DNA of 64,000 nucleotides from a virus, in UHGV virus genome UHGV-1370141. The stretch is one strand, 5' to 3'. The notes below the pieces were generated by a model. The model saw only the letters and a program-made list of their open reading frames with translations. It did not search any database and had not been told where the DNA came from. A program made the translations under genes and the position numbers. Positions 9,672-62,124 of this stretch are shown here, in pieces; within the stretch, counting starts at the first letter, position 1, and every line of letters starts with the position of its first letter.

Positions 9672-10937
9672 TTATTTAGATTTTTCGTAAGCAGCGATAC
9701 CTGCGGAGATATAACCGTTCAGACCGCCAGCCAGGTGTTTCTGAGTAGAAGCAATAGCTTTCTCTTGCAGAGACAGAGCCTGGTTAATACTGGTGATGTA
9801 ACGACGCGCGGTACGCACGTTTTCGGTCAGTTCCGGTTTTTCATCGATCTTGACTTTGTCGATTTCTTTCAGCAGCTTATCGATGCTGTCTTCGAAAGAC
9901 TTACGTGCGCTTTCAACTTTACGATAATCCTGAACGTTCTTCTCAATCTGTTTACCCACTTCGTTGAAGAAGGCATTGATTTTAGCCAGTTCGCCAACAG
10001 ACGGAGTTTTCACGCTGGTTTCAACGCTGTTTTCAGATTCGACGAAAGTAGAGGAGAAACCGCCTTCGTTATCGTACTCGGTCTTCACAGCCATGTTGCC
10101 GAGTTTGAAGTTCTTAAGATTGTCTTGTTTAGCCAGTTCGCTGAAATCAGCTTTCAGGCTGTCAATCTTAGCACCGTTACCTTTAGTAACATCTTCAACC
10201 AGGCCAGCGGCTTTAGAGGCCATAGAAGGCACTTTAGAGCTGTAGAAAGAGGAAACTTGGCTCAGGATGCCTTTCAGTTTCGCGACGTCGTCACCAACGA
10301 ATTTACCGTCGATGGACAGAGATTTAATGAAACCGCCAGAGATTTCATCTTTCTTCTGTTTGCCCAGCTTACGGATGATCGCGTCGTTTTTCTTCGCACG
10401 TGCCTGGATAGATTTACCCTGGTTGTGGAATTTCAGCCAACGATCTTTGATCTTACGACCCTGTTCTTTCAGCCAATCAAGGATACGTTTCATGAAGGCT
10501 TTAATGTCTTCCCACAGGGATTCACGAGCAACCTGACGGCGGTTACGAGAACCGTAGGATTCGTGAGCAACGGAAGAACGGTGTTCGAAGTTCCAGCGAG
10601 AACGGATGGATTCCTGAGCAACGTCCAGCGCTTTAGCAGCGTCGTCCGGCATGTCTTCTTCAGCGTCCATCGGCTCTTCGCCGTCTTCACCGGCATCTTC
10701 GCCGTCAGCAGCAGCCTGAGCTTCGTCCAGGACTTCCAGCTGAGCATCGGTTTCGTCGCCGTCTTCGGCCAGCAGCTCTGCGTCTGCGTCCATCGCTTCG
10801 ATCGGTTTGGTGTCATGCTCGATATCGGCCAGAGTACCTTCTACAGATTCTGCTGGCAGTTCGATGCCGTCTGGAACTACAGTAGAAGTAGACTCCATAG
10901 ACTCACGAGCAATTTTGTTTTTGTAGAAATTCGCCAT
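9672..10937 (-). CDS. acidic protein, paralog A (421 aa)
   Basis: conserved termini shared with 11020..12291 (MANF.K...ARESME / GKQKKDEISGGFI / NGY..AGI.AYEKSK); D/E-rich N-terminal third. Confidence 0.7.
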   Translation of the reverse strand: MANFYKNKIARESMESTSTVVPDGIELPAESVEGTLADIEHDTKPIEAMDADAELLAEDGDETDAQLEVLDEAQAAADGEDAGEDGEEPMDAEEDMPDDAAKALDVAQESIRSRWNFEHRSSVAHESYGSRNRRQVARESLWEDIKAFMKRILDWLKEQGRKIKDRWLKFHNQGKSIQARAKKNDAIIRKLGKQKKDEISGGFIKSLSIDGKFVGDDVAKLKGILSQVSSFYSSKVPSMASKAAGLVEDVTKGNGAKIDSLKADFSELAKQDNLKNFKLGNMAVKTEYDNEGGFSSTFVESENSVETSVKTPSVGELAKINAFFNEVGKQIEKNVQDYRKVESARKSFEDSIDKLLKEIDKVKIDEKPELTENVRTARRYITSINQALSLQEKAIASTQKHLAGGLNGYISAGIAAYEKSK

Positions 10938-11019: not shown

Positions 11020-12291
11020 TTATTTAGATTTTTCGTAAGCACCGATACCAGCACCCAGGTAGCCGTTCAGACCGCTAATAACGGTGTTAGCAACGTAGCT
11101 AACGGCGCGGTTCAGGGTCTGGTAGTTCTTCACAGACCAATCAGCAGCTTGACGTGCATTACGCAGGCCATCCCACTTGCTCTGGTCTTTTTCGGTATTC
11201 AGTGCGGTAGCAGCTTTCTCAGCAGCCTGTTGCAGCTTCACGATTTCAGCGTCATAAGCACGGAAATCTTTCAGTACAGCTTCGAAGCCTTTACCGATTG
11301 CTTCCAGAGCAGAAGCAGCGCCAGCCATTTCAGAAACGGACGGAGTTTTCACGTCTTTATCTTCAGACGCGTCACCGGTGCTCATGAATGCAATTGCAGT
11401 GAACTTGTGGCCGCCAGCCAGTTCTTTAGTACCAGACTGAACGTATGCGTTGCCCGGCAGAGCCAGCAGTTTGGACGCATCACCTTTTTCAAAGTTCGGC
11501 AGAGTGTGCAGTTTAGAAGCCGCCTTACCAAACAGTTCTACCGGCTGATCGCCACGCATTGCTTTGAATGCGTCGTCGTCACCTTTGCTCACAGCGGTCA
11601 CAGCTTCACCAGCTTGTTTTTCCAGAACACTGATGGAACCTTTAGCTTTGCCAGCGGTAACTTCTTTCGCGATAGCGATAGAGCCAGCAGCATCGAATTT
11701 ACCTTCGATAGACAGCTTGGTGATAAAGCCACCAGAGATTTCATCTTTCTTCTGTTTGCCCAGCTTACGCAGCATTTCCTGATATTTCTTCGCACGTTTC
11801 TGTGCGGTCTTACCGACGTTGAAATATTTCAGTTTCAGGTCTTTGATCTTCGCAATCACTTCTTTACAGAACTGAATGAAACGATCGTAAAGATCTTTCA
11901 GGGTTTCTTTCCAGCCTTCCTGCGCAGCAGCAGTCATGCCACGGCCACGGCGATAGGATTCACGAGCCAGTTTGGTACGTTCCAGGCACCAACGACGTGC
12001 GATGGATTCCTGGGCCACTTCGTGCAGGGCAACCGCTTCTTCCGGCATTTCTTCACCGTTAGCAACGGCTTCTTCCGCCTGATCGATAGCGTCTTCAGTA
12101 CGCTCAGTATCGGCGGCCAGAGTTTCACCGTCAGTTTCCAGCTGATCCAGTTCGCCATCCATAGAGGCTACTTCTGCAAGCTGGACGTCCAGGTTCTCTT
12201 CTGCCGGTTCAACGTTGCTGATACCGTCGATTACTTCATCGGCCGCTTCCATTGATTCACGAGCGGCGCGAGTTTTTGCGAAATTTGCCAT
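11020..12291 (-). CDS. acidic protein, paralog B (423 aa)
   Basis: tandem paralog of 9672..10937. Confidence 0.7.
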   Translation of the reverse strand: MANFAKTRAARESMEAADEVIDGISNVEPAEENLDVQLAEVASMDGELDQLETDGETLAADTERTEDAIDQAEEAVANGEEMPEEAVALHEVAQESIARRWCLERTKLARESYRRGRGMTAAAQEGWKETLKDLYDRFIQFCKEVIAKIKDLKLKYFNVGKTAQKRAKKYQEMLRKLGKQKKDEISGGFITKLSIEGKFDAAGSIAIAKEVTAGKAKGSISVLEKQAGEAVTAVSKGDDDAFKAMRGDQPVELFGKAASKLHTLPNFEKGDASKLLALPGNAYVQSGTKELAGGHKFTAIAFMSTGDASEDKDVKTPSVSEMAGAASALEAIGKGFEAVLKDFRAYDAEIVKLQQAAEKAATALNTEKDQSKWDGLRNARQAADWSVKNYQTLNRAVSYVANTVISGLNGYLGAGIGAYEKSK

Positions 12292-46498: not shown

Positions 46499-48456
46499 CT
46501 ACCCCGCCATTAAGATTAATTCTGAGTCGATGGCGATACCCGCCTCCAGATCTTCTTCGGTATCGCGTAAGAAACGGTTTTCCATGCTGATAAGCTCATT
46601 GTGTAACACCATGCTGCTAGACACTTCGTCTACGTTTGTGCTGGACATAAATCCGTTATCTGGGCGATAAGCCAGCGCCAAATCCATCTCCGTGGTATCG
46701 ACTAAAAGTCTAACCTGTAATTGGTCGCCGTCGAAATCCTGTTTGTCCACTCCATTCCTTTTGGAGCAGGTGTGCAATGACACCCTCCCATGTTTTCACA
46801 TGGGCACAGACTATATCATAACCGTAGGTATTGCTACCCGTAGGTCTCCCCCACTTCGCCGCTAAACTAAGCAGCTACTCTACTCGGTTTTACCCTTTCG
46901 ATAGTCGTTGAACGATTTTCATCGCTGCTGGTTATCCATTATCACAACCCTTAGCATTATTGGTTAGCATAGGCTATCTTACGAATTGTTTCTGACTTTC
47001 GCCACCCTGTCGGGATCGTAAGCTTTAGGAGTTTCCAGCAATTCGAGGGATACGCACTAGAGGTTTCCCGTCTAGTGGGCCAAATTTTAGCATTCGGAGC
47101 TTTGATGACGCGATCGGAGATACGTAACGAACACTGTGTAACATCAGGGTTAACAGCTGAGATAAATAATGTCTGAATAGACAACTGTACAAGCGTCGGG
47201 TTTCGTAGCGCTGATATCATCAGGCCGTAACCGCCACGAGACTCCTTAATAAGTTCGTTGATAATTTCATGAACCAACGGTACGTACTGCATTGATGCAA
47301 ATGCAATAACACGTTCACACTGCCGTGGTGTGAAGTTCCGTCGACCGAGTTTGTTTTCAATAGCTACAGATTCTAACGTCACTAGCCAACGCCAAGGTGC
47401 AATAACCTTCATAGCGTCATGCGGTTCTGAGATTGGAGAGATTGTTACACGACCACCCCACGGGATGTGTGTTGAACCTAACTTGGCACGATAGAATCCA
47501 GGTTTACCTTCCATCACCTCCTGACGATGGTCAATATAGAAGTACGCTAACTGGCGATTTGCTTTTAATGCGCGACTAATAATGAAATGGGTTGGGATGC
47601 GTCGTGCATTAGTATAAAGTAACGCGATGTTCTTAACCGCGTCTATTGCACCGGTATAAACAGGATCGATAAAGATACCCTGACGTCGTTCCTCCGTAAC
47701 GATCAGTTTGGGTGAAATGATTGGAAGATGAACCGGAAAGAAAGTGTGTGATTGTTCTTCGAAGAACTTTTTCCACTCTAAGCGAGTACGTTCGCTCTCA
47801 TATCGGTTATTTTTCGTTGGTGGATAAATTTCTTTCCAGACTTCAGGAGAAGTTAAGATATTGAATATTGTTCGATGGTGGTCAATAAAATTCCTAATGC
47901 CGCGTGGAACTTGATACTCGCTAAAGATACGTTTGATTATTCGGGATCGAGTACCTTCGTCTTTATCAGGTTTATAGCACGGATCTAACATCCACATCAA
48001 TAAATCAGAACCACGTTCTACGGTCACTTTGTTTCGGTTAAACTTCTTAAGTTTAGAACCGAAGAAAGCGTTAAACATCGACCAGAATCGTGGGTTAATA
48101 AAGTTGCCTATTTCCTCCGGGGCACGAATCCAGACTTCTGAAACAATACGATGTTCTGTCACTACATAGCCGCAGGTAGGACATCGCATACCGAGATTAT
48201 ATCGATGAACGATAGGTGCTTCACAATCAATACTACAAATGGGTGCCGAATTTAGCGTCTCGTCGACTGTCCGGTTCTGTAAGATTCGGTTAATCAACTC
48301 TGACGTCTCAATGGTGTCTTTATATTTCGCAACATCATTGATAATCATCGGCGGTTTATAGCCCTTTTCCTCCGCCTCTTTGAAAGCGTCACGTAACATT
48401 TTATCGTGACTGATTAATCGCCCTGATACACCGAAGTATTGTAATCTGTCTTTCAC
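46499..48456 (-). CDS. RNA polymerase beta'-like subunit, N-terminal module; intron-interrupted (exon 1 ~47150..48456, exon 2 46499..~46783)
   Basis: exon 1: Zn finger CSIDC...CPTCG, GKPGFYRAKLG...GGRVTISP, ISALRNPTLVQLSIQTLF; exon 2: HTCSKRNGVDKQDFDGDQ ... FMSSTNV. Confidence 0.65.
46784..47150 (-). other. group I self-splicing intron (no internal ORF)
   Basis: minus-strand GTTCAACGACTA (R-like) and GATATAGTCTG (S-like) P7 elements, P9-like hairpin before exon 2, frame change between exons, no RBS; boundaries approximate. Confidence 0.65.
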
Positions 48457-48470
48457 GCCAAATCCTCAAC

Positions 48471-48512
48471 AAAAAAAGAGAGGGAAGGGACAGGGGGTTT
48501 TTCCCCTGTCCC
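48471..48512 (-). terminator. intercistronic terminator/attenuator hairpin
   Basis: A-run then GGGACAGGGG-loop-CCCCTGTCCC between the 612-aa gene and the RNAP gene. Confidence 0.55.
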
Positions 48513-48544
48513 TAATTACTACCAATTACGCACTACTACATCTG

Positions 48545-50383
48545 TCAGACAGGGCTGTAGTTACCGGAAGCGAATGACATGTTGTAGTCACTGCCGAAGG
48601 AGTTCGGGCCGTTACCAGACAGAGTGAAGTTTTCACCGCCGTTGTTGAAGAACAACGTATTAGCCAGGCTATTGACTGCGGTAACACCATTCACTTGGAA
48701 GATGCAGTTATCACGCACGTAGTCCAGCAGCGCTTTGGCGAATTTCGGGTTGATTGCCAAATCGGTGGACTCGCCAGTTACGACCGGCTGTTTGCTGCCG
48801 AACAGGGAAGCGGCCAGCTTCAGCAGGTACAAACGCTGTTCAGTCGCGTTGAACTGACGGTGTGAGTAAGATTGCGCGTACAGGTAAGTGTAGGCATCGT
48901 GTTGGTTATCACCAACTTTGCTCAGAACAGACACCAGGTCCTGATCCTGGAAGCTACGTTTCTGGCTGTTGCTGAAATACTGACCGGAAACAGTCGGTAC
49001 GCCAGCGATAACAACGTGGTTGCAGGTGATGGTATTAACTTTCAGCATTTCAGCGAAACGCTGCGTGAACACCGTAGCACCTTTCGGAGCCATGTTGTCC
49101 AGGATGGTCAGGATGTTAGACAGTGTACCAGTGTTACCCTGGGAAACTTCACTGAACATCGTGGAGAGACCACCGATACCGTTACCAGCACGATGGTTCA
49201 CAACCAGCGCAGCTTCTGGGTAGGCGAACATGTTCAGGCACTCTTCGATAGCTTCGCGGTTGCCATCGATTTTGCTCAGGTCCGGACGTTTGTCACCCCA
49301 CTCTACGTATTCCATAACGCGGGAGAAACGACGATCGGTTTTGTTGAGAGAGTGCATGAAGCGTTCACGCCAGCCACCGATAGCGGCGATTTCTGCAAAG
49401 GCGGCCAGTTCAATCAGCTGACGTTCGATTGGTACCATAGCCCCGGAAGACTGAGAGTCCATCAGAGAAACAACAACTTCTGCTTGCAGCTGTTTGTAAT
49501 CCTGTACGCCATTTTCAGGTGCACGGCGGCCAGTGTAACGCAGGTTGATGTAACCCACACCCGCAACGCTCGGATAACCCTGAACACGTTCAGAGGACAT
49601 CAGCGTCGGGTTAGTATCGAAGCTACCGGTCTGAGTGTGTTCAACCTGAACCATCAGGTCAGCACGTTGTGCAGAGCCGTTAACGTCAGTCAGAGAACCT
49701 TCGTCTACCGCAGTTACCTGTGCAACGAAGCGATCGCCACGAGTCAGTTTCAGCTGACCCAGGTAGCCCGGAATACGGCCAAAGATACCCAGAGTCAGCT
49801 GACCCATCAGCTGGATAGCCCACTCTTCGGTCAGCGTTTTACCCAGGTCTGGAATGCAGTTCATTACCATGAATTGCACAGACGACAGGTTCTGCTGTTC
49901 GCAGATTTGTTTGGTGATGGAATCCATTACGCCAGCCTGACCGAACAGAGATGCCAGGGTGTAATAAGTTTCTTTACCGTTGATTTCACGGAAGCGTACA
50001 GACTGACCGTGTTCGAAGAACAGGATACCGTACATCCAGTGGCTGCCGTTTTCATCTGCTGGCGCAGCAACGTATGCCGCAGAACCCATTTCTGGATTCA
50101 CACCATCGATAACACCGCAGCGGAATTTGCTCAGGTACGGGTTACGTTCAACCATCTTCGCAATCAGCGCGGTGAAATGTGAAGCGGCAGAAACGTAGGA
50201 CATATAGCCGAACGCTTTATCGAAAGTGGAGATATTCTTAGACATACCACCGAAAGCATTTGCTGCGTGGGTGTTATCCACACTGCCTGCACCAGCACCT
50301 ACACCACCAAAAGACGGAGCCGGGTCTACACCAGCAGCGCCAGCATTTACGTTGTTAGGAATTTCGTTAAACTCTTTAGCCAT
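48545..50383 (-). CDS. chmA: 612-aa protein with Gly/Ala/Ser-rich terminal extensions; chimallin-like nuclear-shell candidate (alternative: structural protein)
   Basis: flexible N- and C-terminal segments, strong RBS, own terminator, immediately upstream of the RNAP beta' gene; identity inferred from context only. Confidence 0.45.
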   Translation of the reverse strand: MAKEFNEIPNNVNAGAAGVDPAPSFGGVGAGAGSVDNTHAANAFGGMSKNISTFDKAFGYMSYVSAASHFTALIAKMVERNPYLSKFRCGVIDGVNPEMGSAAYVAAPADENGSHWMYGILFFEHGQSVRFREINGKETYYTLASLFGQAGVMDSITKQICEQQNLSSVQFMVMNCIPDLGKTLTEEWAIQLMGQLTLGIFGRIPGYLGQLKLTRGDRFVAQVTAVDEGSLTDVNGSAQRADLMVQVEHTQTGSFDTNPTLMSSERVQGYPSVAGVGYINLRYTGRRAPENGVQDYKQLQAEVVVSLMDSQSSGAMVPIERQLIELAAFAEIAAIGGWRERFMHSLNKTDRRFSRVMEYVEWGDKRPDLSKIDGNREAIEECLNMFAYPEAALVVNHRAGNGIGGLSTMFSEVSQGNTGTLSNILTILDNMAPKGATVFTQRFAEMLKVNTITCNHVVIAGVPTVSGQYFSNSQKRSFQDQDLVSVLSKVGDNQHDAYTYLYAQSYSHRQFNATEQRLYLLKLAASLFGSKQPVVTGESTDLAINPKFAKALLDYVRDNCIFQVNGVTAVNSLANTLFFNNGGENFTLSGNGPNSFGSDYNMSFASGNYSPV

Positions 50384-50430
50384 TTTATTTATCCTTTAAA
50401 GGTTTAATACAATTGTAGTGTTGGTTCACG

Positions 50431-50546
50431 TAGATAACATATACCTGAGATATTTTAGAATGCGTCTAGAACACACATAACTCAAAATAGTTAACCACCG
50501 AACCATCACATAGATAATATCATTCTCAGATATTTTTCAATGTGAG
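50431..50546 (+). promoter_or_regulatory. two tandem ~35-bp promoter-like direct repeats in a divergent intergenic region
   Basis: TAGATAACATATACCTGAGATATTTTAGAATGCG and TAGATAATATCATTCTCAGATATTTTTCAATGTGAG. Confidence 0.4.
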
Positions 50547-50589
50547 TAGAATGTGACCGTTTCCTATGTGTAACCCCAAGGAGTCAGTC

Positions 50590-51651
50590 ATGTTCAGTCA
50601 AGCCGAGTTAAACCAAGCAGTCATAAAGGGGCGCTACGAAGACCCTTCTGCTATACAATTGGTCAATGCCGTAAAAAATAATAACCAGCGCATTCGCAAC
50701 TATTTAGAATCGATTCAAACCAGCGTTGGTTCTGGTCATCTCGTCCTAAAAATCTTAGCAGCTATCGGCTATGCCGGTGAACCCACGTACGAAGAAATCG
50801 AATGGGCTTGTCGTCGAAAGCTGTCAGATATCGGCAACGCTCTACGCTTAACTTCTGTGGGGGAGTATGGTCAAGTTTTTAACGGCGCTTTTATAGAAGG
50901 TCAGGATGAAATCATCTCGTTAGTTGCGAGACCTGTCGATCCTAATCTTTCTTTCCGTGACTACACACCGGCGGTTTACCTTTATCACGAATACACGAAT
51001 CTTAACTGGACGCTCGGTAACGGAAAACCCCGAGGGATCAGCATTATCGAGATAAATCTGGTTGCACTACTGTGGCAATATGTTCTTGCTGAACAATACT
51101 ACCGAACACAACCAGAACCCATCACGCGCTTGGTATACGCGCAGCGACACATCATTTACAGGATGTTACCCAGTTACATGGATATCGCTTTATTAAATAT
51201 TCATCGTGCGATTGCCTTCGGTAAAGAGATAGAAGAAGAAAACCCGTTACGAGTTATTCCGACTCCGCCTCTACGCGATTTAGCAATCCGTCACGCGAAA
51301 GCGATTTCAAAATCGTTACGTGCTGGTAAACCTCTACCTGCGGTTGTCATGGCTCACATACCTCAGATTTTCGAAGACCCGAATAAACCGTCCACGGCGT
51401 TGGATCGAATTCTGTTTAAAGAACCCGGTTCGACAATTCAAGGCAGTTGGCATCGAAATATCGTCAACTGGTATTGGGCATTGTTCTGCCTGCAATACGA
51501 CAACACGAGCATGGGTAAATACAAATCTAATCTGATGGTAAGGATTGCCCGTTTCGAGGATGCAAAGATTCTGGAGAAACTTACACGTTCGGCAAGAAAC
51601 TACTACCGACACGAGTTAATTCTGCCATTATACAGTGCGCTCGAAAAATAA
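50590..51651 (+). CDS. hypothetical protein (~353 aa)
   Basis: start moved to second ATG, which has RBS AAGGAG 6 nt upstream. Confidence 0.6.
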   Translation: MFSQAELNQAVIKGRYEDPSAIQLVNAVKNNNQRIRNYLESIQTSVGSGHLVLKILAAIGYAGEPTYEEIEWACRRKLSDIGNALRLTSVGEYGQVFNGAFIEGQDEIISLVARPVDPNLSFRDYTPAVYLYHEYTNLNWTLGNGKPRGISIIEINLVALLWQYVLAEQYYRTQPEPITRLVYAQRHIIYRMLPSYMDIALLNIHRAIAFGKEIEEENPLRVIPTPPLRDLAIRHAKAISKSLRAGKPLPAVVMAHIPQIFEDPNKPSTALDRILFKEPGSTIQGSWHRNIVNWYWALFCLQYDNTSMGKYKSNLMVRIARFEDAKILEKLTRSARNYYRHELILPLYSALEK

Positions 51652-51773: not shown

Positions 51774-54071
51774 TTACTCCTCATCGAATGTTTCTTCTTC
51801 ATCTTCCTCCTCATCATCCTCACCTGCCCTTTCTGATTTCTTGACATACTGTACTTCCGCAAGCTCTTTATACAATCCTTCGTCTTCAGCGGTTTTATCG
51901 TAGAAATCCGACAGTAAACGCATACGGTTTTTATCCATCATGAACACACCTAAGCATTCAAGGATGTGATAGTACGGTTCTACGGTGGAGAACGCCGTGC
52001 GACGAATGTCCGCAATTTCGATCAATTCTTTAGGAATACCGTAGTTCTCTACTAAGTGCTCTGGCAGAATCAACGTTTTGTATTTACGGAAATTGTTTTC
52101 CTCAAACCACGCGGTTGCACCGTTTCGGATAATCGGATCTTCGATGCTGTCCAACCACTCTTTAATCTTGGTTTTGTTTTCTAAAACCACCGGTAGTTTT
52201 ACAGCGTCGTAAGGCGGTTCTTCCAAATGGCCAAACTTCGGACCAAAGATGGCGTTGTACATTCGATGATAGTGATAGTTTTTCTCGTCCTTCTCGTTAT
52301 AAGCGCTACGTTCCTTAATGTTCGTTGTTTTCAGATAGCCCGGATTACCCGAACGAATGGAATCCATAATGGTGTGTTCAATCTGCGCAACCTTTTCCAG
52401 TAACGGAATGATTTCAATCTGGTCACCACGTGCGACGACTTCACACAGTCCTTTAATAGTATTCTTAAACTCCTTCATGATAATCGGTGGAATGTTCGAG
52501 GTACGTAAAGACACCCCTTTTACTTCCAGCTCGGGATCTTTTTTCAACTGACCTTCCTGACCGGTAATCAGTGAGAAGTAGTGTTTTGCTTTAGTCGTTA
52601 ATGCAAACGAATCGAACTTAAATTCGTTCTTCATCGCGTACAAGAACAGACGTTCTTTCGCTACACCGATATTCGCAGACATACTCGCCATCAGGTGACG
52701 GAGGTGTTGCGTTGCAATATAAATCATTGCATTGGATACACGAGTTGCTTCTTCACCGTAATGCTTACCAGTATACCAAACCGCCCACCATTGTGCAGTC
52801 ATCATTGTAGAGTCGGTATCTGAAACCACACCTACCCGACGAACCACATCCGGCATTCTTGCGATATTAATCGGTAAGTTTTTAGTGGTCAGGATATTGC
52901 GAATTAAAAGTGCGTACTTACCGATGGTTTTCTGTAAGAACAGTGCGGAACGAATCAGCTCCTTATAGTCGTCCTGCTGATCCCACGGTAATGGCTTTTT
53001 CTTATCGTCGAGTTTCTTAACGTGGCTGAACGCTTTGCCCATCGGCACCACGTCAGTACGGAACTGGGAGATGATGATCTGCATGTCACCATCAATGGTT
53101 TTTTCCGCAGCATCCCAGTCTTCGACTTCGTCAATCATCTCACGAGAAATCAACGCGGTAATAAAACCACGCATGAACTGATCGTTGTACTTCGCAAGAT
53201 GATAAAAATCACCCATGTAAACAAATGCCGCGCGAGTGAGCGGAGAAACATTTGATACATAGTGCTCAACAAACTCCATCCCCTCTTCGTTCTTGAAATA
53301 AAAGTCCGCAGAGTAATGAATCACGTCCATCACTTCTTCTACGGTCGGATAATGAAGCTCGTACGTATCCATACATTTCTTGAAGCTATTCCAATCGGTT
53401 AACGTGCCGATGGACAAGAAATGATCGATGATACGTGACGGTGTGTCGTAATGACGATTACCGCCTAATAAACGTTCGTTACCTGCGTTACCGAATGAGG
53501 TTGCAGTACGGCAGGTTGATGTTAAAACAGAGTGTGAAGACTGGTTAAAGATGATCGTGTACGGAGAAGAGAATGCGCCCGACATCCCGTTGTTCAGAGT
53601 CTTGACTGCGTTCTGTTCATTCTTTTTGTTAATCTGTAAAACTCTATTACCTGCTGCTTCGGCAGCAAACATCTCTTTTTTCACCGCTGCACGTTTAGCT
53701 ACGTTAGCGGCAGTGAATTCTGATAGCTTGGAACGTTTGATGTGTTCTGGGATATAAAACGTTAACGACGGTGCGGAGATAATCTGTTTATCGATTACGG
53801 TTTTAAACAGTTTATCAACAGTTGTGTATTTCTCTTCACGGTCTCCTGTTTTCTGATTACGCACCCACATCTTACACAGCGGTGATTCGGTTGATAACTC
53901 ACCGCCAGGTGCCAACATCTCGTCAACTTCTTTACGACATAATTCCAAAGGGTATTTTTGTGCGGTTACGTTGTGAATGTATAGCGCAACCTGTTCACGA
54001 TAAGCATCGTTAATATCGATATCACGATGGTACTCGTCTACCGATAAACGAAAAGGAGAATTGTATTCCAC
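51774..54071 (-). CDS. hypothetical large protein (765 aa) with DTDS motif and acidic C-terminus; polymerase-like?
   Basis: VVSDTDSTMM resembles family-B polymerase motif C and a K-H-Y lies ~60 aa later, but motifs A and B were not found. Confidence 0.6.
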   Translation of the reverse strand: MEYNSPFRLSVDEYHRDIDINDAYREQVALYIHNVTAQKYPLELCRKEVDEMLAPGGELSTESPLCKMWVRNQKTGDREEKYTTVDKLFKTVIDKQIISAPSLTFYIPEHIKRSKLSEFTAANVAKRAAVKKEMFAAEAAGNRVLQINKKNEQNAVKTLNNGMSGAFSSPYTIIFNQSSHSVLTSTCRTATSFGNAGNERLLGGNRHYDTPSRIIDHFLSIGTLTDWNSFKKCMDTYELHYPTVEEVMDVIHYSADFYFKNEEGMEFVEHYVSNVSPLTRAAFVYMGDFYHLAKYNDQFMRGFITALISREMIDEVEDWDAAEKTIDGDMQIIISQFRTDVVPMGKAFSHVKKLDDKKKPLPWDQQDDYKELIRSALFLQKTIGKYALLIRNILTTKNLPINIARMPDVVRRVGVVSDTDSTMMTAQWWAVWYTGKHYGEEATRVSNAMIYIATQHLRHLMASMSANIGVAKERLFLYAMKNEFKFDSFALTTKAKHYFSLITGQEGQLKKDPELEVKGVSLRTSNIPPIIMKEFKNTIKGLCEVVARGDQIEIIPLLEKVAQIEHTIMDSIRSGNPGYLKTTNIKERSAYNEKDEKNYHYHRMYNAIFGPKFGHLEEPPYDAVKLPVVLENKTKIKEWLDSIEDPIIRNGATAWFEENNFRKYKTLILPEHLVENYGIPKELIEIADIRRTAFSTVEPYYHILECLGVFMMDKNRMRLLSDFYDKTAEDEGLYKELAEVQYVKKSERAGEDDEEEDEEETFDEE

Positions 54072-58152: not shown

Positions 58153-58185
58153 TAACTTTAAATACTCCTTTAAGGGAACATCACA

Positions 58186-58200
58186 GAGATAATATCTATA
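58186..58200 (-). promoter_or_regulatory. AT-rich promoter-like motif (class 2 variant)
   Basis: plus-strand GAGATAATATCTATA ~35 nt upstream of the corrected start. Confidence 0.4.
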
Positions 58201-61388: not shown

Positions 61389-62041
61389 TTCTGTTACCTC
61401 GTTCTGTTACTACTACTCGTTCTGTTGTACGTCGCTATACCCCGACGTGTGGGTTAATGGGACGCGTTGAACGTCTGTTGAGGCGCAGCAGGCAGTGGCA
61501 GCAATGACAGCAAGGGCAGCAATGGTACAAACGCCAACGCGAATAAAAAACGCTACTGTCACTGAACACAGCTTCAGAATACTGACAATAACGCAAAAAG
61601 GGTGTCGCTAACGGGTGTCGAGCCCCAGCCTCGGTGTGTAGCCACGTCACCAGGCATAGCGACAAAGTTCGGTACTGGTCAAACACAGCATGACATGGGA
61701 CGATGAAGGTTTACAGGTGATCATCGACCAGTACCGTCGAGTTAACACGTAACTCTCAATTCACATTACAGGGTATTCACGTTACACTTAGGGGAAATAC
61801 CCAATAATTAAATTCTTGGTGGGTGCAGGTGGGAGGTTTTATCCTCCCACCGTACAACCGTTTAGGTGGTCTAACCACCAGGGTCTCACGACCCTAACGT
61901 AAGTCCGAACTTAATCGGTAGGTGTTTACACGTTTTTAAGGAGCTTTCTACCCGTGAGCAAGAGCAGAAGTTATCAGAACAACCGACGCTCAGTTGAAGG
62001 CTGACGAGTTTGTAACTCTTGTTCGATTGCTCTAATCTGGG

Positions 62042-62114
62042 CGACCAATGGCAGGATTCGAACCTGCGAAATAACCGATTATTAGTCGGGTGTTAATTCC
62101 TCTAACTTCAATGG
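62042..62114 (-). tRNA. tRNA-like gene, possibly degenerate (anticodon loop reads as AAU)
   Basis: hand-folded cloverleaf: T-arm GCAGG-TTCGAAT-CCTGC, D-arm GTTA/TAAC with GG loop; but A at position 8, a U-U acceptor mismatch and a C-U anticodon-stem mismatch. Confidence 0.4.
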
Positions 62115-62124
62115 TCTAAATCCA

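Follow-up and report, generated by a model that had tools for sequence, protein, structure and literature searches.

Identification of the gene and its orthologues

Is the 612-residue protein encoded directly upstream of a non-virion RNA polymerase (nvRNAP) subunit gene in the phage genome UHGV-1370141 the building block of a phage nucleus? The initial annotation of the window (the whole stretch of 64,000 nucleotides that was analysed) proposed a chimallin at this locus from composition and gene context. In the present analysis, fold, profile alignment, orthologues and synteny all back this identity: the protein is very probably ChmA (chimallin), the main shell subunit of Chimalliviridae jumbo phages, and the window very probably represents a new phage within the PhuZ-less SPN3US/Asesino-like clade.

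The reading frame (48545..50383, minus strand; 612 codons plus stop) is a real gene, with a match to PHROG 8316 (E = 4e-242) and full-length homologues in 62 jumbo-phage records. A protein 99% identical to it is on record from a 222-kb contig. A 436-residue ORF on the plus strand (48872..50182) was rejected as an antisense shadow of chmA, and the SPFM phage proteins P0027-P0030, considered as paralogues, are the same protein in block-scrambled form and represent a record artefact.

The closest relative in GenBank is Erwinia phage Asesino, the gp039 (ChmA) of which is 57.8% identical over 91% of the protein and, when fused to GFP, rings phage DNA (PMC11724907). Asesino gp039 and gp040 (nvRNAP β′1) share the gene order, the upstream motif pair and the terminator hairpin of the window, whereas the DNA of the Asesino chmA gene is too diverged from that of the window for megablast across the gene. 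The second reference, SPN3US_0022 (RefSeq ACQ60_gp244), is 54.8% identical, and its genome shares the synteny around the chimallin gene. SPN3US gp244 has been named a diverged chimallin homologue (Laughlin et al. 2022) and a square lattice of 13.5 nm has been connected with it (PMC9365700). The SPN3US numbering schemes run in opposite directions, and 'gp244' is easily confused with SPN3US_0244; the latter, a 240-residue virion protein, was tried as 'gp244' and shows no chimallin similarity (13 aligned columns, E = 0.48).

The neighbouring gene encodes the nvRNAP β′ N-terminal subunit, as first annotated, with a match to phiKZ gp55 (PDB 7ogp_A, E = 1.8e-37), and the phiKZ arrangement had been given correctly, PHIKZ054 ('nuclear shell protein') being followed by PHIKZ055 (RNA polymerase). 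On the other side of chmA lie a divergently transcribed phiKZ gp52-like gene (50566..51651, plus strand; PHROG 3938; BLASTP to PHIKZ052, E = 2e-7) and a divergent family-B DNA polymerase gene (51774..54071, minus strand; PF20286, E = 1e-284), which its place in the phiKZ gene order also marks as the equivalent of phiKZ gp50. The order of DNA polymerase, opposite-strand gp52-like gene, chimallin and nvRNAP β′-N is thus that of phiKZ gp50-gp55, except that in phiKZ an additional small gene, gp53, precedes gp54. Further phage RNA polymerase subunit genes are present in the window and, with the PF20286 polymerase and the nvRNAP β′-N gene adjoining chmA, they make up a Chimalliviridae genome context.

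The 64-kb window is only part of a genome of some 220-250 kb, and the identity of the protein to the solved chimallins is very low, both of which would suit a paralogue or an accessory shell component with the chimallin fold, the true ChmA being encoded elsewhere in the genome. However, the Asesino orthologue is the protein that was experimentally found to form the shell (PMC11724907), and the place adjoining nvRNAP β′-N is that of phiKZ gp54. In addition, the homologue search gave one matching place in every record listed (62 places in 62 records in total), so that no second copy is seen. We therefore consider a paralogue to be very unlikely and retain ChmA; by orthology, we infer that the UHGV-1370141 phage would form a nucleus.

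Fold and profile comparison with known chimallins

Searches that use sequence alone did not connect the protein to chimallin: no match was obtained in a search against Pfam-A, and no chimallin was found among all PDB chains either by phmmer with the protein itself or by hmmsearch with a profile of 25 family sequences, because the family is too diverged for such methods. With the older and narrower version of the chimallin family, PF25677.1, neither the protein nor the relatives give a match up to E = 10, let alone a score above the gathering threshold; this shows how far the model reaches and does not count against membership of the broader chimallin family. The newer version, PF25677.3 (Chimallin_Phikzvirus), is recorded on half of the full-length relatives (13 of 26) and on all relatives of phiKZ gp54, and is absent from the record of the near-identical relative P0001.

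The AlphaFold2 model of the protein is of moderate confidence (pTM 0.78, mean pLDDT 73.5). When it was compared with the PDB using Foldseek, the nine best matches were all chimallin chains, including 7sqs, 7sqq and 7sqr (201phi2-1), 7sqv, 7squ and 7sqt (Goslar), 8igg and 8fne (phiPA3), with a probability of 1.00, E values from 2e-20 to 1e-16, 546-592 aligned columns and TM scores of 0.62-0.70 normalised to the target, while the first match outside chimallin had an E value of 0.05. The superpositions have r.m.s.d. values of 6-8 Å at sequence identities of 12-15%. The solved chimallins (201phi2-1 gp105, Goslar gp189 and phiPA3 gp53; PDB entries 7sqq-7sqv, 8igg and 8fne; PF25677) have the same two-domain fold and, at 626-631 residues, fall in the same length class. 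The relation is also seen between profiles: hhalign of the family profile against that of the phiKZ gp54/201phi2-1 gp105 family gave a probability of 90.4% (E = 1.4e-6) over 489 collinear columns, whereas the comparison with single sequences reaches an E value of only 0.036-0.042. Both of the checks proposed with the initial annotation, structure prediction against chimallin and HK97-fold capsid proteins and a profile comparison with the gp54/gp105 homologues, thus came out in favour of chimallin.

The size of the protein is within the range of large structural proteins, and its neighbour, the phiKZ gp52 homologue, bears a structural head protein annotation, so that a virion structural protein (an HK97-fold capsid or another head component) was also considered. 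This reading is extremely improbable, since neither a capsid protein nor any other virion fold is present among the 50 Foldseek matches listed, in which everything other than chimallin has an E value of at least 0.05, and since PHROG 8316 has no structural annotation. Hardly any weight can be given to the reading as an active enzyme, whether a GNAT-type acetyltransferase or toxin-like, that has only the fold of the C-terminal domain in common with chimallin, for although this chimallin domain does have the GCN5-related acetyltransferase fold (PMC9365700), the Foldseek matches span both domains over 546-592 columns and extend beyond the GNAT part, no acetyltransferase Pfam family was found even at E = 10, and GNAT proteins are only marginal Foldseek matches (9dsb, E = 1.1).

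Core and tails of ChmA

The ChmA model consists of a folded core flanked by tails that are disordered (pLDDT <50) at residues 1-63 and 572-612. The core (codons 64-565; 48689..50194, minus strand), the part that is mostly confidently modelled and matched to the chimallin chains, is predicted to comprise an α/β N-terminal domain and a GNAT-like C-terminal domain with an approximate boundary near residue 215. Its pLDDT, averaged over blocks of ten residues, is largely 73-93 and dips to 55-70 around residues 91-100, 141-150, 171-180, 251-270 and 311-320. The Gly/Ala/Ser-rich flexible tails described in the initial annotation are borne out by composition, Gly, Ala, Ser and Asn making up 58% of residues 1-50 and 55% of residues 566-612 against 29% of the core.

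Conserved candidate docking segments sit inside these otherwise variable tails. In the N-terminal tail (codons 1-63; 50195..50383, minus strand), delimited by model confidence, composition and conservation, residues 1-47 are variable and Gly/Ala-rich, whereas residues 48-63 hold a conserved FDxAFG motif and are a candidate NTS that may dock on a neighbouring protomer, by analogy with residues 48-61 of 201phi2-1 (PMC9365700). In the C-terminal tail (codons 566-612; 48548..48688, minus strand), residues 574-592 (TLFFNNGGENFTLSGNG; nt 48608..48664, minus strand) carry the motif FFNNGGxxFxLSG, are conserved as strongly as the core (0.70) and align in hhalign to the phiKZ-family segment 'GGQRFxGNxxIxQFAVxG'; they are put forward as a candidate CTS1, and the final 20 residues as a candidate CTS2. 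A docking role of these C-terminal segments is suggested by comparison with the chimallins described previously (PMC9365700). Disordered tails at both ends and a conserved C-terminal docking-type segment are common to this protein and the solved chimallins, although the C-terminal tail is shorter here.

Putative expression signals around chmA

The chmA start codon is preceded by the Shine-Dalgarno sequence AAAGGA (50392..50397, minus strand), which lies 8 nt upstream of the ATG and of which AAGGA is invariant in four phages; it is a good ribosome-binding site, but the earlier description of it as very strong was overstated, as it is not exceptional. Further upstream, a 31-nt motif occurs twice, against 0.00 copies expected, with the proximal copy (AAAATATCTCAGGTATATGTTATCTACGTGA) at 50426..50456 and the distal copy at 50506..50536, both on the minus strand. 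Its core, cAGnnnGATATTATCTaYGTGA, is kept at the corresponding position in SPN3US, Asesino and L006, and the motif is a candidate early promoter of the phage (compare PMC7598289). A scan for sigma-70 promoters found 10 sites against 9.1 expected, without enrichment, and is uninformative because the phage uses its own polymerases.

The interval from chmA to the RNA polymerase gene contains an intrinsic-terminator-like hairpin followed by a U-run (48471..48512, minus strand), in agreement with the hairpin that had been attributed to chmA. Its G+C-rich stem of 10-11 bp closes an A5 loop (GGGACAGGGG-aaaaa-CCCCTGTCCC, at about 48512..48487), and has a folding energy of -31.8 kcal/mol (z = -3.4). 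The T-run after it occupies 48480..48471, and a terminator scan missed the hairpin because this run begins more than 2 nt past the stem. Three relatives, SPN3US, Asesino and a metagenomic one, share this hairpin, with compensatory changes in the stem.

The nvRNAP gene and its group I intron

The nvRNAP β′ N-terminal subunit gene is split, on the minus strand, by an ORF-less group I intron of 350 nt (46739..47088) that interrupts its catalytic NADFDGD motif. The intron matches Rfam RF00028 with 63.7 bits against a gathering score of 50 (E = 1.3e-15), and its boundaries were taken from the intron-less L006. Exon 1 (47089..48456, minus strand), recognized by PHROG 2987 and alignment to 7ogp, has a GTG start and 456 codons and ends in ...KAPNA, whereas exon 2 (46499..46738, minus strand; 79 codons plus stop) begins with DFDGDQLQV... 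and covers profile positions 412-477 of PHROG 2987. The last nucleotide of the upstream exon is U and that of the intron is G, and the 5-bp P1 helix co-varies with that of the JN03 intron (GCU/AA..UUGGC versus GGU/UC..GAGCC; slashes here and below mark junctions).

The exon junction (...AAUGCU/AAAA...AACAG/GAUUUC) agrees exactly with AATGCTGATTTC of L006, which lacks the intron, and the spliced product would read KAPNADFDGDQL, identical to phiKZ gp55, a sequence that is restored only when the 350-nt intron is removed. An alternative in-frame 3′ splice site at 46787, the end of the Rfam model, would put 16 residues into NADFDGD and is contradicted by both the intron-less allele of L006 and phiKZ gp55. 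The extra 48 nt beyond the end of the Rfam model form two further hairpins.

In phiKZ, too, a group I intron breaks up the NADFDGD codons of the RNA polymerase gene, gp55, but that intron carries the HNH endonuclease gp56 and lies 3 nt away, one codon upstream (N/ADFDGD versus NA/DFDGD in the window). Related introns occur in the Seoulvirus genomes JN03, Proteus phage 7, SaP7, EC001 and SPLA5c, in which they have the same insertion point, are 70-72% identical to that of the window over nearly the whole 350 nt and have the same 3′ end (GTGGACAAACAG/GATTT); the intron of Proteus phage 7 holds an ORF for a 286-residue HNH/NUMOD1 endonuclease, which is lacking in the intron of the window. In contrast, the RNA polymerase genes of Asesino and SPN3US (531 residues in the latter) are uninterrupted.

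Discussion

From these features, the following course of events may be proposed. Early transcription of chmA would start from either or both of the conserved AT-rich upstream motifs and would probably be carried out by the injected virion RNA polymerase, and the conserved hairpin past chmA would limit read-through into the RNA polymerase gene. ChmA would fold into its two-domain core, α/β N-terminal and GNAT-like C-terminal, and the FDxAFG motif (near residue 55) and the FFNNGGxxFxLSG motif (near residue 580) may dock on neighbouring protomers and so knit ChmA tetramers into a flexible square lattice, which would enclose the replicating phage DNA and exclude host nucleases. The nvRNAP β′ N-terminal subunit would belong to the non-virion RNA polymerase working inside this compartment, and its mRNA would first have to lose the presumably self-splicing group I intron to regain NADFDGD. 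It has also been considered that, with a protein of such low identity to every solved chimallin and a shorter C-terminal tail, the lattice spacing, tail docking or pores of the shell may differ from those of 201phi2-1 and Goslar, as the 13.5-nm lattice reported for SPN3US lysates hints, and that, in addition, the intron may be an element of competition or timing among co-infecting Seoul-like phages rather than purely selfish, a combination that we regard as speculative and rather unlikely.

The results assign the UHGV-1370141 phage, very probably, to the PhuZ-less SPN3US/Asesino-like clade of the nucleus-forming Chimalliviridae, and this assignment predicts that restriction and CRISPR nucleases would be kept away from its DNA. 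A chimallin gene beside an RNA polymerase gene is ordinary for this phage family, and the current understanding of the system is unchanged. The gene that is labelled 'hypothetical' or 'unknown function' in GenBank and PHROG 8316 can be annotated as chimallin across the clade. The group I intron splits the nvRNAP β′-N gene both here and in several deposited Seoulvirus genomes, in which it has given rise to truncated or fragmented gene calls; none of the same-site Seoulvirus introns is annotated as an intron in its record. The initial annotation of the window did not mention the intron, by which the nvRNAP gene is divided into the ORFs 46957..48456 and 46499..46783.

Identification of the 612-residue protein as a chimallin

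The ORF at 48545..50383 on the minus strand encodes 612 amino acids and is a real gene, with a full-length match to PHROG 8316 (E = 4e-242), a family labelled 'unknown' for function in PHROGs. One full-length homologue was found by tblastn in each of 62 jumbo-phage records with Erwinia, Salmonella, Escherichia, Cronobacter and Proteus hosts, the best matches being Erwinia phage Asesino (57.8%) and SPN3US (54.8%). At the DNA level no close match was present in the phage collection, with only 9% of a 5-kb query aligned at ~75% identity, and a 99% identical protein occurs on contigs (up to 222 kb) from metagenomes or run assemblies.

No family was found for the protein in the local Pfam, and no PDB chain was matched by phmmer or by a 25-sequence profile; sequence-only methods fail here, and structure is decisive for its identity. 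An AlphaFold2 model built on the 25-sequence alignment (mean pLDDT 73.5, pTM 0.78) was searched against the PDB using Foldseek. The nine best matches were all chimallin, from 201phi2-1 (7sqs, 7sqq, 7sqr, 8igg), Goslar (7sqv, 7squ, 7sqt) and phiPA3 (PhuN, 8fne), with E-values of 2e-20 to 1e-16, a probability of 1.00, 546–592 aligned columns, TM-scores of 0.62–0.70 on the target and 12–15% identity, whereas the E-value falls to 0.05 at the tenth match. The alternative of an HK97-like capsid protein found no counterpart, with no capsid fold among the 50 matches listed. In hhalign, the profile of this family was collinear with that of the phiKZ gp54 relatives, which include 201phi2-1 chimallin, over 489 columns (probability 90.4%, E = 1.4e-6), and the alignment takes in the D-x-NG-x-x-R-x-D block and the C-terminal F-x-x-N...F-x-[VL]-S-G segment. 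The Pfam family PF25677, named 'Chimallin_Phikzvirus', does not reach the SPN3US-type proteins in version 1 (the local copy); version 3 is recorded on 13 of the 26 full-length relatives and on all of the phiKZ gp54 relatives. The proposal of the initial annotation, drawn from context and composition, that this is the nuclear-shell protein is thus supported by structure, profiles and published orthologues.

The flexible Gly/Ala/Ser-rich ends around a large core that had been described are also evident: the G/A/S/N content is 58% in residues 1–50 and 55% in residues 566–612 against 29% in the core, and the model is disordered at 1–63 and 572–612. By homology with 201phi2-1 and Goslar chimallin (PMC9365700), the protein would have a two-domain core with tails linking the protomers. 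The conserved FDxAFG at residues 48–63 is a candidate N-terminal segment that would tie protomers inside the tetramer, while the conserved FFNNGGxxFxLSG at 574–592 (candidate CTS1) and the extreme C-terminus (candidate CTS2) may both join one tetramer to another, the variable Gly/Ala-rich stretches possibly serving as linkers.

Orthologues and gene order

The family and the clade are both known, and the gene adds a new, diverged member; the identification of its closest orthologues is already published. Within GenBank, the nearest relative is Asesino gp39. Prichard et al. (2025) tagged this protein, their gp039, as ChmA and saw GFP-ChmA ring the phage DNA; they called gp040 nvRNAP beta'1 and assigned Asesino and SPN3US, with their relatives, to a clade of Chimalliviridae that lacks PhuZ (PMC11724907). 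Laughlin et al. (2022) named 'gp244' of SPN3US as a diverged chimallin homologue and linked it to a 13.5-nm square lattice in lysates of infected cells (PMC9365700).

SPN3US gene numbers run oppositely in GenBank and RefSeq. SPN3US_0022 and ACQ60_gp244 are one gene, the chimallin (locus L001, 7881..9734), whereas SPN3US_0244 is ACQ60_gp022 (locus L003, 15024..15746), a 240-residue virion structural protein that adjoins the head protease, has no chimallin similarity and was rejected as 'gp244'. A preprint (10.1101/2024.12.31.630880) gives YP_009153538 as SPN3US chimallin; in NC_027402.1 that accession is the 240-residue protein without chimallin similarity. The deposited orthologues of Salmonella phages SPFM10, SPFM14, SPFM6 and SPFM12 (P0027–P0030) are block-scrambled, with segments of ~10–20 residues in reversed order, which suggests an artefact of translation or annotation in these entries.

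The window carries a divergent family-B DNA polymerase (PF20286, E = 1e-284), an opposite-strand homologue of phiKZ gp52 (E = 2e-7), chimallin and the RNA polymerase gene, an order shared with SPN3US, Asesino and the metagenomic relatives. In phiKZ the same order is formed by the gp50 DNA polymerase, opposite-strand gp52, gp54 ('nuclear shell protein') and the gp55 RNA polymerase, so that the initial annotation described the phiKZ adjacency of shell and polymerase genes correctly. The window also contains three more phage RNA polymerase subunit genes.

A group I intron in the nvRNAP beta'-N gene

Beyond the chimallin assignment, this intron and the annotation pitfalls are the most useful additional results. 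Two ORFs match PHROG 2987: 46957..48456 (positions 2–417), whose C-terminus reads ...KAPNA followed by unrelated residues, and 46499..46783 (positions 412–477), which contains DFDGDQLQV. Between them Rfam detects a group I intron (RF00028, E = 1.3e-15) at 63.7 bits, above the gathering score of 50. A metagenomic relative with 71% chimallin identity has an uninterrupted 533-residue gene reading AATGCT/GATTTC (slashes mark the intron site), which places the boundaries exactly at 47088..46739 (350 nt, minus strand), with U as the last base of the 5' exon and G as that of the intron. The predicted junction, KAPNADFDGDQL, is identical to phiKZ, and the spliced 535-residue product aligns with gp55 in the solved structure of the phiKZ non-virion polymerase (7ogp_A, E = 1.8e-37), confirming that chimallin is encoded immediately 5' of the beta' N-terminal gene.

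The intron interrupts the catalytic NADFDGD codons (NA/DFDGD); it is present in the 99% relative and absent from the 71% relative, SPN3US and Asesino. Introns at the same site, 70–72% identical over almost the whole length, occur in Salmonella phages JN03, SaP7 and SPLA5c, Escherichia phage EC001 and Proteus phage 7, and the P1 helix co-varies (GCU/AA...UUGGC in the window, GGU/UC...GAGCC in JN03). The Proteus phage 7 intron holds a 286-residue HNH/NUMOD1 endonuclease, whereas the window intron has no ORF; the phiKZ gp55 intron, one codon (3 nt) upstream, bears the HNH endonuclease gp56. Sites with an ORF-containing intron, an ORF-less intron and no intron form the usual pattern for a mobile intron. 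In none of these five phages is the intron annotated, and the records concerned give truncated or fragmented genes at the site.

Candidate expression signals around chmA

The downstream hairpin ascribed to the gene was recovered between chmA and the RNA polymerase gene at 48471..48512 (minus strand) as GGGACAGGGG-aaaaa-CCCCTGTCCC followed by CUUCCCUCUCUUUUUUU (−31.8 kcal/mol, z = −3.4). The hairpin is found at the equivalent position in SPN3US, Asesino and a metagenomic relative, and compensatory stem changes across the four phages, such as GGACGGGGGC/GCCUCCGUCC in SPN3US, suggest selection on its structure. It may act as a terminator or attenuator, setting how much shell protein is made relative to polymerase subunit. 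The ribosome-binding site, previously called very strong, is good (AAAGGA, 8 nt before ATG, with AAGGA invariant in four relatives) but not extraordinary.

Upstream of chmA an AT-rich 31-nt motif (core cAGnnnGATATTATCTaYGTGA) occurs twice, at 50426..50456 and 50506..50536 (minus strand; 0.00 expected), and is kept at the same positions in all four phages. Since early promoters of jumbo phages have been described as conserved AT-rich elements of roughly 10 nt (PMC7598289) and, according to a recent review, the first genes that the virion polymerase transcribes are chmA and those of the nvRNAP (PMC12908238), we infer that the virion RNA polymerase may use these motifs as early promoters. A third copy of the core (GATATTATCTaYGTGA) lies ~8 kb away at 58181..58196 (minus strand).

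Additional observations

P0001, a 90%-identity cluster with 99% identity to the window protein, has 337 members from public run assemblies and ENA; judged from these sequences, this phage or near-identical ones recur across many public datasets. This recurrence may be linked to the persistence that has been reported for Seoul-like jumbo phages in assemblies of bacterial isolates (10.1101/2024.12.31.630880). The remainder of the window resembles head and replication genes of the SPN3US type. Adjacent paralogues at 9672..10937 and 11020..12291 (minus strand), a tandem duplication, match PHROG 2497 (internal head protein). A tRNA-Ile gene with anticodon AAT, which is uncommon in bacteria, was found by ARAGORN and Rfam at 62040..62116 (minus strand).
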